In this document: one piece after another, positions 1-3,632 of the stretch
How the letters are laid out: every line of letters begins with the position of its first letter
Position numbering within the stretch: the stretch's first letter is position 1
Virus genome (UHGV): UHGV-1709880
Reading direction: 5' to 3' (one strand)
Length of the DNA: 10,367 nucleotides
Source of the DNA: a virus
Made by a program: the position numbers and the translations under genes
Notes under the pieces: generated by a model
Told to the model about the DNA's origin: nothing
What the model saw: only the letters and a program-made list of their open reading frames with translations
The model's database searches: none

Positions 1-210
1 ACAACGCGCGGCGCTCTTTACTCGTTCGTCTACAACGTGGGTGCTGGCAATTTCAGAACATCGACGCTTCTTCGCAAAATAAACCAGGGTGATATTAAAG
101 GCGCATGTGATCAGCTACGGCGCTGGACATACGCTGGCGGTAATCAATGGAAAGGACTGATGACTCGCCGTGAGATTGAGCGTGAAGTCTGTTTGTGGGG
201 GAAACAATGA
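1..210 (+). CDS. 19: Endolysin, phage lysozyme (GH24, T4 e / P22 gp19 type); 5'-truncated by the window edge, C-terminal ~69 aa present
   Basis: Frame 1 is open from position 1 to TGA at 208-210 and translates to ...[63 protein letters not shown], which I recognise as the conserved C-terminus of P22-type lysozyme. The stop overlaps the downstream Rz start (ATGA), as is typical of lysis cassettes. Confidence 0.85.
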
Positions 211-665
211 GCAGAGTAACCGCGATTATCTCCGCTCTGGTTATCTGCATCATCGTCTGCCTGTCATTGGCTGTTAATCATTACCGTGATAACGCAATCG
301 CCTACAAAGAGCAGCGCGATAACAAGGCCAGTGAACTGGAGAAGGCGAACGCCACCATCGCTGACATGCGGAAGCGTCAACGTGATGTAGCAGAACTCGA
401 CGCAAGATACACAAAGGAGCTTGCTGATGCTAACGCGACTATCGAAAGTCTCCGTGCTGATGTTTCTGCTGGGCGTAAGCGCCTGCAAGTCGCCGCCACC
501 TGTGCAAAGTCAACGACCGGAGCCAGCGGCATGGGCGATGGAGAAAGCCCAAGACTTACAGCAGATGCTGAACTCAATTATTACCGTCTCCGAAGTGGAA
601 TCGACAGAATAACCGCGCAGGTTAACTACCTGCAGGAATACATCAGGACGCAATGCCTTCGATGA
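207..665 (+). CDS. rz: Rz i-spanin (inner-membrane spanin subunit), 152 aa
   Basis: ATG at 207 gives [93 protein letters not shown]...: an N-terminal transmembrane helix followed by a coiled-coil periplasmic domain, closely resembling lambda/P22 Rz. The ORF track begins at GTG 195, but the ATG at 207 matches the family N-terminus (MSRVTAI...). Confidence 0.9.
427..612 (+). CDS. rz1: Rz1 o-spanin (outer-membrane lipoprotein spanin subunit), embedded in the +1 frame of rz
   Basis: A strong RBS (AAGGAG at 414-419) sits 7 nt before ATG 427. Translation [46 protein letters not shown]... has a lipoprotein signal with lipobox VSAC and a proline-rich mature region, the hallmark of Rz1. It lies entirely inside rz in a different frame, the classic embedded spanin architecture. 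Confidence 0.8.
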
Positions 666-839
666 TAGCGATAATTTTACTCATCATCCTTCACATCTGG
701 CTCTGTAGACAGGGTGGTGATCACTTCTGGAGTGAATCCAGATTAAACATCTCATTGCTGATGCTTGATATTGAGCATCTGGCGCGCAGTAAGGGGCTGC
801 GTTGAGATAAGAGCCAGTTCATTACAAATACCAGGATTT

Positions 840-864
840 AGCCTCGCATTCGCGGGGCTTTTTA
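840..864 (+). terminator. Candidate intrinsic terminator in the rz-rha intergenic region
   Basis: GC-rich hairpin GCCTCGC (841-847) / GCGGGGC (852-858) with loop ATTC and one G-U wobble, followed by TTTTT (859-863). Confidence 0.45.
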
Positions 865-873
865 TATCTGAAT

Positions 874-901
874 TTCACAGCGCATCTCACGCGCATATTA
901 A
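874..901 (+). promoter_or_regulatory. Possible sigma70-like promoter for the rha transcript
   Basis: TTCACA (874-879), 16-bp spacer, TATTAA (896-901). It lies just downstream of the candidate terminator and about 105 bp upstream of the rha ATG. Weak match to consensus; by eye only. Confidence 0.2.
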
Positions 902-1007
902 CGAGAGCCTTTCAGTAAGCGAGCCTGAGAAATGCCGTTATAGGTGGCGACCTCTCTCGGGCGGCTTTTCTGTGAGACAGGCTCACTTTCTAAAAGGTAA
1001 AGACGCT

Positions 1008-1532
1008 ATGAATAATCATTCAGTTATTCCAGCCTTCGACTTCCGAGAAATGGTGCAAGCCAAAAACGGAGAGGTCGTTACCACATCCAGAAAAATTGCC
1101 AAGTACTTCGGCAAGCGACACGGTGATGTTCTCAGGAAAATCGAGCAGGTTAAGGCTGATTGCTCGCGTGAGTTTAGCCAACGCAATTTTGCGTCGGCTG
1201 ATTATATCGATGAGCAGGGCAAGGTTCGCCCGATGTACAGCCTGACGAAAGATGGCTGGATCATGGTTGTGATGGGGTTCACCGGGAAAGCTGCTGCGGC
1301 AATCAAGGAGAGCTATATCGCAGCATTCAACTGGATGGCAGAGCAACTGAGCCGCCGCATGGCAATTGGCGAAGAAATGCAGCACCGCTACGCCATCAAA
1401 GAAACACGCTCAAAGCTGAAAGGTACGATCGGCAGTCGGTTAATGAACGAACGGAAGAAAGAGAAGCGTGTCCTGGCTGTCGAGCATGAATACATCTTGC
1501 AGGTGACGCAGCCCGAATTGCTGATTAATTGA
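1008..1532 (+). CDS. rha: Rha-family phage regulatory protein (Phage_pRha-like N-terminal domain), 174 aa
   Basis: First ATG in the open frame, preceded by AAAAGG. Translation MNNHSVIPAFDFREMVQAKNGEVVTTSRKIAKYFGKRHGDVLRKIEQVKADCSREFSQRNFASADYIDEQGKVRPMYSLTKDGWIMVVMGF... carries the characteristic Rha motif (TSR.IA..FGKRH.DVLR.I). Its position between lysis and terminase genes matches the rha slot (orf201) of P22-like phages. The upstream extension of the ORF (765-1007) has no ATG and contains the terminator hairpin. Confidence 0.75.
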   Translation: MNNHSVIPAFDFREMVQAKNGEVVTTSRKIAKYFGKRHGDVLRKIEQVKADCSREFSQRNFASADYIDEQGKVRPMYSLTKDGWIMVVMGFTGKAAAAIKESYIAAFNWMAEQLSRRMAIGEEMQHRYAIKETRSKLKGTIGSRLMNERKKEKRVLAVEHEYILQVTQPELLIN

Positions 1533-1545
1533 AGATGCCATCACA

Positions 1546-1567
1546 AAGCCCATCTACGGGTGGGCTT
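1546..1567 (+). other. Stem-loop immediately after the rha stop (possible terminator or RNA-stability element, no U-tract)
   Basis: AAGCCCA (1546-1552) / TGGGCTT (1561-1567), 8-nt loop, followed by GATAATG. Same architecture as the hairpin at 2143-2168. Confidence 0.3.
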
Positions 1568-1762
1568 GATAATGAAACCGGAATTTATTCTGGGCAACCA
1601 GTTACGGCAGTACAGCGAAACAACCCAAGCCAGTAAGTGGGGAAATAACACTGTCAGCCACTGAAAGATGAACCTCCAGCCTTATGGCAAAAAAGATTCT
1701 TTGTGGTGGCGGACTGATGGAAAGACATCCTAATCAAGCAACCACTCTACAGGGTCATAATT

Positions 1763-2134
1763 ATGAACGACCAGCAAATCGAAAAAGAAATCGTTGAGAA
1801 AGGCAAAACGGCACCGCGAGTTACGCCAGACCATATCGAAGGAATTATTGCTCAGGAGGCATATTTCACAGCAGAGGATGGTGCCTTTGGCAAAGCCATA
1901 AAAGAGAAACATACTGGCGGAGAGGTAAACTACCAGCCGCACGAATCACTTTCTCTGCTGACGTTCTGCGTCCTGGTGCTGCGCAACGGCTTCACCGTCA
2001 CCGGAGAGAGTGCCTGTGCAAGTCCGGAAAATTTTGATGCAGAAATTGGTCGGAAGATTGCCCGGCAGAATGCTGTAAACAAAATCTGGATGCTCGAAGG
2101 TTACTTGCTGAAGCAGAAGCTAAGCGAACAGTAG
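1763..2134 (+). CDS. Hypothetical phage protein, 123 aa; possibly Gp49/Sf6-Gp66-like family (unverified)
   Basis: ATG 1763 with AGGG about 9 nt upstream. Translation MNDQQIEKEIVEKGKTAPRVTPDHIEGIIAQEAYFTAEDGAFGKAIKEKHTGGEVNYQPHESLSLLTFCVLVLRNGFTVTGESACASPENFDAEIGRKIARQNAVNKIWMLEGYLLKQKLSEQ. Same strand and operon context as the flanking phage genes. The family assignment is from memory of small phage proteins found between lysis and terminase genes, not from a search. Confidence 0.6.
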   Translation: MNDQQIEKEIVEKGKTAPRVTPDHIEGIIAQEAYFTAEDGAFGKAIKEKHTGGEVNYQPHESLSLLTFCVLVLRNGFTVTGESACASPENFDAEIGRKIARQNAVNKIWMLEGYLLKQKLSEQ

Positions 2135-2142
2135 TTATTACA

Positions 2143-2168
2143 AAAGCCATTCCTTACTGAGTGGCTTT
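2143..2168 (+). other. Stem-loop immediately after the 123-aa ORF stop (second copy of the hairpin + GATAATG motif)
   Basis: AAAGCCA (2143-2149) / TGGCTTT (2162-2168), 12-nt loop, followed by GATAATGG (2169-2176). Confidence 0.3.
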
Positions 2169-2190
2169 GATAATGGCTTATACCCTACAC

Positions 2191-2216
2191 GGGATAACTT
2201 AACTGATATCCCTTTT
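2191..2216 (+). terminator. Weak terminator-like hairpin upstream of the 80-aa ORF
   Basis: GGGATA (2191-2196) / TATCCC (2207-2212), 10-nt loop, then TTTT (2213-2216). Confidence 0.25.
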
Positions 2217-2237
2217 AACGGATAAACGGAGCCAACA

Positions 2238-2480
2238 ATGGCAGAGATTATTCCCATGACTGAAGAACAGAAATTCCAGTTAGAGATTTACAAGCTGGTC
2301 ATGAACCAGAACGCAGCCGCAGAAGAAGCATTTCAGTTCATTGGTACTGACGAGCTGAAGCTTGAGCTATTCAAAATTCACTTCCAGTCAGGCGGCGCTA
2401 ATTCAGATATCACGACCCGCACTATCGAAGCGGTGCGTAAATCGAAGGAAGCGTTAGACCTGTTCACCGCTGGAGTGTGA
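2238..2480 (+). CDS. Hypothetical small acidic protein, 80 aa (size and position resemble orf80 of P22-like phages)
   Basis: ATG 2238 with GGAG about 8 nt upstream. Translation MAEIIPMTEEQKFQLEIYKLVMNQNAAAEEAFQFIGTDELKLELFKIHFQSGGANSDITTRTIEAVRKSKEALDLFTAGV. Stop TGA at 2478-2480 is 1 nt from the next ATG (2482), implying translational coupling. Confidence 0.6.
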   Translation: MAEIIPMTEEQKFQLEIYKLVMNQNAAAEEAFQFIGTDELKLELFKIHFQSGGANSDITTRTIEAVRKSKEALDLFTAGV

Positions 2481-2481
2481 T

Positions 2482-2871
2482 ATGGCTAAGGCCAAATGGC
2501 ACAAACTCCCGGCGTTCACCATTCCGCTGTTTCAAAGTGCACACGTCTACCTCGCAACAACCAGAGAACAGTTTCAGCACGCTGATAAATTCCTTGGCGG
2601 CAGCGGGGATGAGAAGCCATTCAATCTTGGGCTTGCAAGCAGCTATGAAAACACTGATACGGGTGAGCGATGCTATCTGATTGGAGTATTCGATCAGCAG
2701 ATCGCTACGCTCGTTCATGAGTGCGCCCACGTCTGCTTTTACGTTTGCTCTGATGTCGGCGTGACGACAAGGCCTGAAGATGCCAACGAGACGTACTGTT
2801 ACATGCTGGACAGGATGGTTAATCACTTCCTGCCATTCATTCAGGAGAAACAAGATGCATCACTGGAATAA
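2482..2871 (+). CDS. Hypothetical protein with HExxH motif (possible zinc metallopeptidase-like fold), 129 aa
   Basis: ATG 2482 with GGAG upstream, coupled to the preceding ORF. Translation MAKAKWHKLPAFTIPLFQSAHVYLATTREQFQHADKFLGGSGDEKPFNLGLASSYENTDTGERCYLIGVFDQQIATLVHECAHVCFYVCSDVGVTTRPEDANETYCYMLDRMVNHFLPFIQEKQDASLE. HECAH is at residues 79-83 (nt 2716-2730). The equal-length antisense ORF 2464..2853 has no RBS and no operon logic, so I call the + strand. Confidence 0.6.
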   Translation: MAKAKWHKLPAFTIPLFQSAHVYLATTREQFQHADKFLGGSGDEKPFNLGLASSYENTDTGERCYLIGVFDQQIATLVHECAHVCFYVCSDVGVTTRPEDANETYCYMLDRMVNHFLPFIQEKQDASLE

Positions 2872-3049
2872 TCAATCCCCTTATTGCCAATGCCAACGCT
2901 GCCCGTGCTGCGGGAAGATTGTTAACCAATTTACTGGCAACAATTTCTTCAAGACTGGTTATGGATATGGTGTTGCGGGTAGCATTAATTGCTCTGGGGC
3001 TGCTGCTGAAACGACATCAAACACAGGCAAGCAGGAAGGAGCTAAGTAA
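2855..3049 (+). CDS. Candidate Cys-rich micro-protein, 64 aa (possible zinc-ribbon); uncertain
   Basis: Strong RBS CAGGAGAAACAAG immediately before ATG 2855. Translation MHHWNNQSPYCQCQRCPCCGKIVNQFTGNNFFKTGYGYGVAGSINCSGAAAETTSNTGKQEGAK has two closely spaced Cys pairs (C..C x2 C.CC). Overlaps the 3' end of the HExxH ORF by 17 nt. An alternative hydrophobic ORF 2919..3110 in another frame cannot be excluded. Confidence 0.3.
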   Translation: MHHWNNQSPYCQCQRCPCCGKIVNQFTGNNFFKTGYGYGVAGSINCSGAAAETTSNTGKQEGAK

Positions 3050-3143
3050 TGGTAATCAACGTTTGTTCAGGCTCTCAGGGCTTCGACAACCCATCCAAAT
3101 TCCGCGATGAATGGGATAAGCAAGCAGAAGGGAAATAATCAAT

Positions 3144-3632
3144 ATGGCAGCACCAAAGGGCAACCGATTTTGGGAGGCCCGCAGTAGTCATGGGCGAAAT
3201 CCTAAATTCGAATCGCCTGAGGCGCTGTGGGCTGCTTGTTGTGAATACTTCGAGTGGGCTGATGATAACCCGTTATGGGAGGGTAAGGTATTTTCATATC
3301 AGGGAGAAATAATTAAGGCTAATGTCCCTAAGATGCGAGCCATGACTATTTCAGGATTGTGTACCTTCCTTGATATCACCAGGCAAACATGGGGAACCTT
3401 CCGGTCAATGGAAGGTTTTTCTGACGTCACATCACGAGCGGAAGACATCATCTACGACCAGAAATTCTCTGGCGCAGCCGCTGACCTTCTCAACGCTAAC
3501 ATCATCGCCCGTGATTTGGGCCTCAAAGAGCAGTCGCAAGTTGAAGACGTGACACCTGATAAGGGAGATCGCGATAAGCGACGCTCTCGTATCAAGGAGC
3601 TATTCAACCGTGGAACTGGACGCGATTCTTGA
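3144..3632 (+). CDS. 3: Terminase small subunit (TerS), P22 gp3-like, 162 aa
   Basis: ATG 3144, RBS GAAGGG upstream. Translation [38 protein letters not shown]...[49 protein letters not shown]. Recognised as the P22-type small terminase by length, termini and position immediately upstream of the large terminase. Confidence 0.88.

Follow-up and report, generated by a model that had tools for sequence, protein, structure and literature searches.

Structured hairpins at the ends of variable gene slots between the lysis and packaging genes of lambdoid and P22-like phages

A 10,367-nucleotide stretch of the virus genome UHGV-1709880, all of it referred to here as the window, covers the late region of a P22-like (Lederbergvirus) phage and carries two hairpins of a single structural family on its + strand: hairpin A at 1534-1582 and hairpin B at 2131-2183. 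Each is found at the stop codon of an accessory gene in the interval between the lysis and packaging genes. The family is conserved as a structure on the sense strand of the late genes, it is distributed across many genera of Enterobacterales, and its members coincide with breakpoints in the homology between phages. The interpretation towards which we lean is that, as RNA, the hairpins close the cassettes and set or protect transcript 3' ends, and that their DNA copies serve as portable homology for the exchange of cassettes.

A family of covarying hairpins on the late-gene strand

The core of hairpin A (type A, core 1539-1574) begins 7 nt past the stop codon of rha (TGA, 1530-1532), and this copy was read as ATCACAAAGCCCAtctacgggTGGGCTTGATAATG at 1541-1574; its outer stem is CAUCA/UAAUG (CAUUA in relatives), its internal loop CA/GA and its inner stem AAGCCCAUC/GGGUGGGCUU. 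Hairpin B (type B, core 2137-2175), read as ATTACAAAAGCCAttccttactgagTGGCTTTGATAATGG at 2137-2176, lies upstream of the leader of a DUF2560 (hkbM) gene, and the base of its stem overlaps the stop codon (TAG, 2132-2134) of ORF123, an open reading frame (ORF) of 123 amino acids (aa); here an 8-bp outer stem, AGUUAUUA/UAAUGGCU, is joined through an internal loop, again CA/GA, to the inner stem AAAGCCAUUC/GAGUGGCUUU. Sequence, folding and a covariance model all uphold the original prediction of two look-alike hairpins, one after the rha stop and one after the stop of the 123-aa ORF, and the 3' tails, TTGATAATGAAACCG for hairpin A and TTTGATAATGGCTTA for hairpin B, lack a U-tract just as it had said. 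The stem that it described is present but too short: an outer helix of 5-8 bp and a 2x2 internal loop had been overlooked, the inner helix extends over 9-10 bp, and the second motif does not start at 2141, since the string ACAAAAGCCA begins at 2140.

On the + strand, hairpin A folds with -17.2 kcal/mol (z -3.6) and hairpin B with -20.4 kcal/mol (z -4.8), values that none of 200 shuffles equals in either case, and for both hairpins the - strand folds worse than the + strand. A degenerate pattern of the motif is expected 0.00 times in the window, as judged from 200 shuffles of it. The family covariance model finds exactly two matches in these 10.4 kb, both on the + strand (1534-1582, 54 bits; 2131-2183, 66 bits), although these scores are not independent evidence because both copies are among the 41 sequences behind the model.

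The signature of the family extends over ~45-50 nt and consists of CAUUA, CA, a covarying helix of 9-10 bp closed by a loop of 3-6 nt, GA and UAAUG, so that the GATAAT hexamer is the 3' half of the outer helix and not a separate motif. At least four sequence types can be told apart by their inner stems, A to D being a minimum count: AAGCCCA/TGGGCTT in type A, AAAGCCA/TGGCTTT in type B, GCAGGCA/TGCCTGT in type D and, in type C, a series that passes from G-C through G.U to A-U, with GAGGCCA/TGGCCTC in P22, GAGGCCA/TGGTCTC in HK620 and HK97, and GAGACCA/TGGTCTC in epsilon34. Types B and C comprise 8+2+10 positions (~20 bp-equivalents), types A and D 5+2+9-10 (~16-17).

Copies were collected with a degenerate pattern over IMG/VR, from which a covariance model of 41 distinct copies was built and used to search loci that included a one-genome-per-species bacterial collection; the second collection scan also gave chance matches in unrelated taxa, which were removed with the covariance model. 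The result is 173 distinct sense-strand copies with 39 inner-helix variants, from phages and prophages of ~25 or more genera of Enterobacterales, among them Yersinia, Erwinia, Pectobacterium, Hafnia, Morganella and Xenorhabdus. With the type B 53-mer as query, blastn gave matches in 1880 of 5426 complete Escherichia coli genomes (35%). Carriers include Sf6, HK620, HK97, HK022, ST64T, P22, epsilon34, mEpX1, HK544, Ayreon, phiv205-1, APC_JM3.2 and Stx phages, and in these the hairpins always lie between Rz and the packaging genes or cos, on the late-gene strand; by the covariance model, every copy in 14 annotated phages is on that strand. The whole genome of Sf6 holds two copies only, both between Rz and terS (37830-37878 and 38494-38546) and both without an annotated feature. 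With two copies only in the Sf6 genome and in the window, a genome-wide dispersed repeat of the repetitive extragenic palindromic (REP) type was ruled out.

No copies were found in phage lambda, its right end included, or in the K-12 cryptic prophages DLP12 and Qin, and because K-12 is without the element, the published K-12 maps of RNase III sites and of Term-seq ends are unusable here. A cmscan of window positions 700-3300 against Rfam, at E values up to 10, matched no family to the hairpins and gave only two chance-level matches elsewhere; the papers on phages BTP1 and epsilon34 do not mention the element. As such it appears to be undescribed, its sole annotation being a single automatic 'terminator' call and Rfam having no family for it, and it adds an uncatalogued motif to the known structured RNAs. 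In the GenBank record of Ayreon, the type B copy is the one annotated as a terminator.

The helix is maintained by compensatory change. Pairing extends to 90.5% of cells in the set of 41 distinct copies but only to 29-49% once the partners are slid, and the covariation score is 0.359 against 0.216 for shuffled alignments (reached in 0 of 500). The species-level genome set agrees, with 91.2% of cells paired against 31-40% after sliding and a score of 0.456 against 0.220 (again reached in 0 of 500 shuffles); in it, six inner-helix pairs are altered on both sides, and 9-10 pairs across the sets tested. Positions left free by the search pattern covary as well: one such pair reads UA in 44 copies, CG in 24 and UG in 3, and the outermost inner pair, likewise pattern-free, reads AU in 44 and GC in 25, with one G.U and one A.C. 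The outer helix takes part in the covariation (ATTA/TAAT, ATTG/CAAT, ATTG/TAAT), and most type C copies have GACAAT for GATAAT, the T/C change being matched by A/G in the 5' arm. Over 15 pairs in the 173 copies there are 2187 Watson-Crick pairs, 317 G.U and 23 A.C, a G.U to A.C ratio of 14:1. Because transitions are tolerated only where they yield G.U on the sense strand, the structure must be selected on that strand, and the sense-strand fold most simply acts as RNA in the late transcript.

Variable slots and homology breakpoints

The hairpins are part of a frame into which genes are fitted. In order, this frame comprises a terminator with a structured leader, slot 1, hairpin A with a conserved spacer, slot 2, and hairpin B or C with the hkbM leader. 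Across phages slot 1 contains rha, KilA-N with hkbL, GIY-YIG, another rha, or nothing, and slot 2 a Gp49-like ORF or nothing. In the window, slot 1 is occupied by rha (1008-1532, + strand; Pfam Phage_pRha, E 2e-28) and slot 2 by ORF123 (1763-2134, + strand; N4 Gp49 / Sf6 gp66 family; Pfam Phage_gp49_66, PF13876, E 8e-35) as part of a cassette at 1730-2133. ORF123 is missing in HK620, HK97, P22, epsilon34 and phiv205-1, where the junctions are 1729/1730 and 2133/2134. Hairpin A is kept behind differing genes in Sf6, HK620, HK97, HK022, ST64T, mEpX1, HK544 and Stx2-1717, and because a hairpin is kept even where the slot is empty, as in Sf6 and Ayreon, it belongs to the frame of the slot and not to the inserted gene.

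When the flanks of 160 occurrences were clustered, they fell into 41 left classes and 28 right classes in 55 combinations; the same element is thus found after at least 41 unrelated left contexts and before at least 28 right contexts, as expected of the shared module boundary that had been proposed from the sequence of the window. Left contexts include the 3' ends of hkbL, of two different rha genes, of KilA-N, of gp65 and of the Gp49-like ORF, as well as about ten different canonical terminators 8 nt upstream. In 57% of 194 contexts the hairpin begins no more than 28 nt from an ORF end. Across related phages the motif recurs, more generally than the original prediction had supposed, and it coincides with junctions where gene content changes.

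Breakpoints were located by local blastn of the window against the 14 annotated phages, and they recur at the bases of the hairpins: ten phages break at the left base of hairpin A (1531-1539), four at its right base (1574-1589; the homology to Stx2-1717 stops exactly at 1574) and ten at the left base of hairpin B (2134-2137). Further breakpoints mark the start of the slot-1 gene (1008-1015 in three phages, 1055 in one) and the left edge of the Gp49-like cassette (1729/1730, nine phages), or fall at 658 (seven phages), 828 and 865 (one phage each). Hybrid elements also exist, as direct traces of crossover inside the element. Stx2-1717 combines a type A hairpin with the right flank that usually follows types B and C, and the hybrid at locus L078 joins the 5' arm and loop of type B to the 3' arm of another type, leaving an A.C mismatch. 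A mosaic recombination joint, of the kind suggested in the original prediction, is supported by the recurrent breakpoints and the hybrids.

An orphan 5' half-site, TTCATTACAAA, is located at 819-829 on the + strand, just 3' of the gp65-like ORF and ahead of the terminator and the rha cassette. In Sf6 the bases of this half-site run straight into hairpin A, and the homology of Sf6 accordingly covers window positions 207-828 and restarts at 1539. Ayreon has CATTACAAA, a terminator and then CATTACAAAAGCC (hairpin B), the same succession as in the window, where the half-site is followed by a terminator and, further on, by a full hairpin. Arrays of up to three hairpins bracket consecutive cassettes between Rz/Rz1 and terS in distant prophages (loci L049 and L187).

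The commonest gene downstream of type B and C hairpins is DUF2560. Of 221 hairpins, 88 have a homologue within 700 nt, and 78 have one within 700 nt downstream; with so small a share an obligatory link between hairpin and DUF2560/hkbM was ruled out. The AUG at the base of the hairpin was likewise considered as a conserved start codon and rejected, the frames downstream of it not being conserved. Some annotated small ORFs start in the hairpin or cross it: P22 orf25 (L006, 2521-2598), whose ATG sits in the hairpin loop; ST64T orf118 (L010, 2655-3011), which traverses a degenerate hairpin into the hkbM homologue; and an ORF of phiv205-1 (L001, 3403-3540). These hairpin-crossing ORFs are probably annotation artefacts. 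The cargo of hairpin-bounded slots is varied and includes a 241-aa ORF of unassigned function in a Kluyvera prophage (L187, 5618-6343) and a GIY-YIG nuclease in epsilon34 (L011, 1869-2354).

Transcript ends and the possible roles of the hairpins

A 2026 small-RNA sequencing study of P22 infection reported ten phage RNAs, including P22G, a sense-strand RNA of 204 nt present at 374-488 reads per million (PMC13397905). P22G maps exactly to positions 2314-2517 of the P22 locus L006, and its 3' end is within the 5' arm of the type C hairpin of P22; since P22G maps up to this hairpin, an RNA bounded by the hairpin accumulates in vivo. The end of P22G is set by read coverage and is approximate, so its position may be imprecise or may reflect cleavage in the hairpin loop. 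The body of P22G (nt 59-186) is 96% identical to the conserved non-coding spacer 3' of hairpin A in the window (1604-1729, + strand). Across 87 phage and prophage loci this spacer is 1-3% variable, which makes it more conserved than the adjoining genes, and it is not unusually structured (z -0.6). A 21-codon ORF at 1668-1733 and ST64T orf118 were ruled out as coding sequences, given the lack of codon-position bias and the premature stops in some copies. The Pas small RNAs of enteropathogenic and enterohaemorrhagic E. coli (EPEC/EHEC) prophages were also set aside; they come from a different region, on the holin/lysozyme side of the lysis cassette.

According to the reading that we favour, the hairpins of lambdoid and P22-like phages would form on the sense strand in RNA of the late operon, where they would stand at the 3' end of each variable accessory slot between the lysis and packaging genes. 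We infer that they would fix or shield the 3' ends of cassette transcripts by blocking 3' exonucleases, by serving as a processing site, or both; they would be at most weak insulators against transcription that is not antiterminated, and would not be promoters. Near-identical copies at the same gene boundaries in every phage would at the same time provide short patches of homology in DNA, and we infer that recombination at these patches may swap, insert or delete cassettes such as rha, KilA-N with hkbL, GIY-YIG and the Gp49-like ORF. The earlier proposal of a terminator or RNA-processing hairpin is plausible, if unproven: the sense-strand covariation and the end of P22G fit a role at RNA 3' ends, whereas the terminator scores are negative. 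The conservation of the CA/GA loop and of the outer helix hints that a factor of the host reads them specifically, and this would have to be a host enzyme because the carriers share no phage-encoded partner.

Several observations weigh against this reading. Covariation of the G.U type would fit a hairpin in top-strand single-stranded DNA equally well. The 3' boundary of P22G is inside the 5' arm and not at the 3' base of the hairpin, scores of the terminator type fall between -2.1 and -5.6, where the controls reach +1.2 and +1.8, and 14% of copies are directly behind a canonical terminator, which is odd for an element that ends transcripts. Some breakpoints (1729/1730, 658, 1012) are away from the hairpins. 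Finally, the invariance of CAUUA...UAAUG is partly a matter of ascertainment, in that the first scan fixed the 3' half, the second fixed both halves and the model rewards the signature; the first scan left the 5' outer arm unconstrained, and this arm is still CATTA (or CATCA, CATTC) in nearly all copies.

It is doubtful that the element is an intrinsic terminator or attenuator, a 'moron terminator' that halts polymerase arriving from cassette promoters or without Q modification and through which Q-modified polymerase reads. Its position directly past the cassette stop codon, the label in the Ayreon record and the end of an RNA at the P22 copy are what such an element would lead one to expect, and intra-operon terminators whose role is unknown have been noted for phage L (bioRxiv 10.1101/2020.10.05.325894). 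The stem-loop is G+C-rich, with a core of -8.6 to -12.2 and a full hairpin of -17 to -24 kcal/mol, a T-rich tail follows the full stem in 18% of copies, a type D copy comes near the threshold (d = -2.1), and a few homologues with TT for GA have the canonical tail GUGGCUUUUUU (L146, L155, L224). However, neither a U-tract nor a positive score was found for the tails TTGATAATG, TTTGATAATG and GACAATGG, with d from -2.1 to -5.6, and types A-C, which are without a U-tract, have d'Aubenton-Carafa-type scores of -4 to -5.6, compared to +1.8 for the terminator at 840-870 of the window and +1.2 for the Sf6 terminator t-coat. Moreover, the 14% of copies just mentioned begin only 8 nt behind a strong canonical terminator, and the conserved internal loop and outer-stem sequence play no part in intrinsic termination. 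Canonical termination by types A-C is unlikely; weak or lineage-specific termination is possible. An endonucleolytic processing site comparable to the RNase III sites of T7, at which a cut would divide the cassette mRNAs from one another, with a protective hairpin left at the 3' end, is less probable still, even if its architecture makes it the most concrete candidate for a reader. An architecture in which a conserved 2x2 internal loop joins an upper stem of 10 bp to a lower one of 5-8 bp (~20 bp-equivalents in types B and C), an intercistronic location, the conservation of the lower stem and loop sequence while the upper helix covaries, as for a recognised site, and the need for a host enzyme where carriers have no phage-encoded partner in common all point in its direction. 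By contrast, a helix of only ~16-17 bp-equivalents, as in types A and D, is a short one for E. coli RNase III, the end of P22G matches a cut neither in the lower stem nor in the internal loop, and K-12, in which RNase III sites are mapped, is without the element.

We consider it very unlikely that the hairpins are a dedicated signal for cassette exchange, that is, a site folded as single-stranded DNA or as a cruciform as in integron attC, with a conserved CAUUA-CA/GA-UAAUG base and a free helix, that a host or phage recombinase or nuclease activity would read for the capture and exchange of cassettes. If this were true, the hairpins would be more than passive homology, and lambdoid phages would carry, from the lysis module to the packaging module, an integron-like but integrase-less array for taking up accessory and defence genes. 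Hairpins with conserved ends and a variable middle do bracket cassettes, in arrays of up to three, the joints are at the hairpin bases, an orphan half-site is present, and covariation that tolerates G.T suits single-stranded DNA too. Set against these, no recombinase gene is linked to the arrays and the carriers share no protein in the region; crossovers at the left base, at the right base and inside the loop suggest homologous rather than site-specific exchange; the cores and extrahelical bases of attC are absent; and an RNA end maps to the site in vivo. Resemblances to the XerCD site dif and to the target sites of IS608 (TTAC) and ISDra2 (TTGAT) were considered and dropped, since neither size nor sequence matches and the hairpins are not linked to any of these enzymes. 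Least probable of all, and rejected on the promoter scan and the covariation, is a hairpin fused to a sigma-70 promoter, a composite with GATAAT as its -10, as the original prediction had proposed with its downstream promoter and as is known from T4-like phages, in which promoter-early stem-loops (PeSLs) overlap -10 boxes (PMC2839356). Types A, B and D do have GATAAT, and the start of a gene often follows at 20-70 nt, yet there is no -35 at a spacing of 16-18 bp (the match to TTGACA is at most 1/6) and no TG extension, a promoter scan is empty at both hairpins, the commonest type C copies have GACAAT, the third base covaries with the 5' arm, in which its change is compensated, and the first copy in the window precedes no gene but a non-coding spacer of ~190 nt.

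As an observation on the terminator-like homologues themselves, the copies at L146 1201-1249, L155 5084-5132 and L224 7810-7862 have TT (or TG) in place of the internal-loop GA; the tail GUGGCUUUUUUAAUGG in L146 and L155 is that of a canonical terminator, and L224 has GUGGCUUUUGUAAUGG. These copies may represent terminator forms of the family, whether ancestral or derived.

Among described systems, the PeSLs are the nearest analogue. In the T4-like phages phi1 and RB49 (Arbiol et al. 2010, PMC2839356) they carry a strong sigma-70 promoter, and their stem-loop has been proven to terminate transcription efficiently. Like the hairpins studied here, they are short repeated intergenic stem-loop cassettes right past the upstream stop codon, concentrated in hyperplastic accessory regions, and recombination between copies accounts for the insertion, deletion and replacement of the genes that they flank. 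The present family differs in its lack of a detectable promoter and its negative terminator scores, in that its helix covaries under a conserved CAUUA-CA/GA-UAAUG base, and in that a genome has only 1-3 copies, which in temperate lambdoid phages are found nowhere but in the lysis-to-terminase interval. The boundary sequences (bsq) of HK620 and Sf6 are conserved junction sequences proposed to allow homologous recombination and hence mosaicism (concept cited in PMC3029335). They resemble the hairpins as short sequences conserved between phages with unrelated flanks, but the bsq concept rests on conservation of sequence, whereas the hairpins are conserved as a structure with compensatory changes, and this implies that they have a function of their own. 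The hairpins are not among the bsq catalogued for Sf6, whose record AF547987 puts bsq2 to bsq7 elsewhere, the nearest, bsq7, being inside Rz.

The concept of morons with flanking terminators, developed for HK97 and HK022 and used in PMC2629481, applies to the rha cassette insofar as it lies between a canonical terminator and the hairpin in a late operon and is present or absent among syntenic relatives; it does not apply to the 3' element, which is not a canonical terminator. The intercistronic RNase III sites of T7 resemble the hairpins in that an internal loop parts an upper from a lower stem within a long phage transcript, and would also be expected to leave a protective 3' hairpin, but the helix here is shorter (16-20 bp-equivalents) and its internal loop is a symmetric 2x2. 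Cassettes that end in an imperfect inverted repeat with conserved ends and a variable middle, and that occur in arrays, recall integron attC; unlike attC, the hairpins lack an integrase, RYYYAAC/GTTRRRY cores and extrahelical bases, and their crossover points vary. The annotated neighbourhoods of the carriers contain no recombinase, and attC cores and bulged bases are absent from the hairpin alignment.

The reading of the hairpins as RNA 3'-end elements whose DNA copies recombine bears on the old question of how lambdoid mosaicism comes about, by illegitimate recombination followed by selection or by homologous exchange at short conserved linkers. The element would be a concrete and very widespread linker of the latter kind; it demonstrably coincides with cassette junctions, and selection maintains it for a structure of its own, most likely as RNA. 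Two addressable slots should help in finding new moron and defence genes and in engineering phages, and the hairpins could be used as anchors for such mining.

Neighbouring genes and minor features

The left end of the window is the 3' part of the lysozyme gene, followed by Rz (195-665) and the gp65-like small ORF (653-805). A canonical intrinsic terminator (840-870, + strand; GCCUCGC-AUUC-GCGGGGC, then UUUUUAU), found by a terminator scan with a score of d = +1.8, is the left border of variable slot 1 and is annotated as a terminator in epsilon34, mEpX1 and HK544. It is followed by the conserved, structured leader of slot 1 (866-1007, + strand; -38.9 kcal/mol), which contains a long hairpin formed by an inverted repeat at 907-998. 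This leader is common to phages with rha, another rha, KilA-N or GIY-YIG in the slot, and the homology stops at the start codon. The P22 region that matches it, across the annotated rha start codon, gives rise to the small non-coding RNA P22F (PMC13397905). A possible weak promoter, TTCACA-16-TATTAA, is situated at 874-901, upstream of the 907-998 hairpin.

To the right of hairpin B, the conserved leader that extends to the start codon of the DUF2560 gene contains a small second hairpin at 2191-2212, GGGAUA...UAUCCC followed by UUUU, which is marginal against shuffles (z -2.3). The DUF2560 gene itself (hkbM / P22 orf80 / Sf6 gp67) is at 2238-2480 on the + strand (Pfam PF10834, E 1e-43). Two small ORFs separate it from the gp3-type small terminase gene (3144-3632), after which come the genes for large terminase, portal, scaffold and coat. 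Small ORFs with a Cys pair and a Gly-rich composition, without a Pfam match, adjoin the DUF2560 gene in unrelated phages (L049, 7365-7730; window, 2855-3049) and may be another recurrent cassette of the region.

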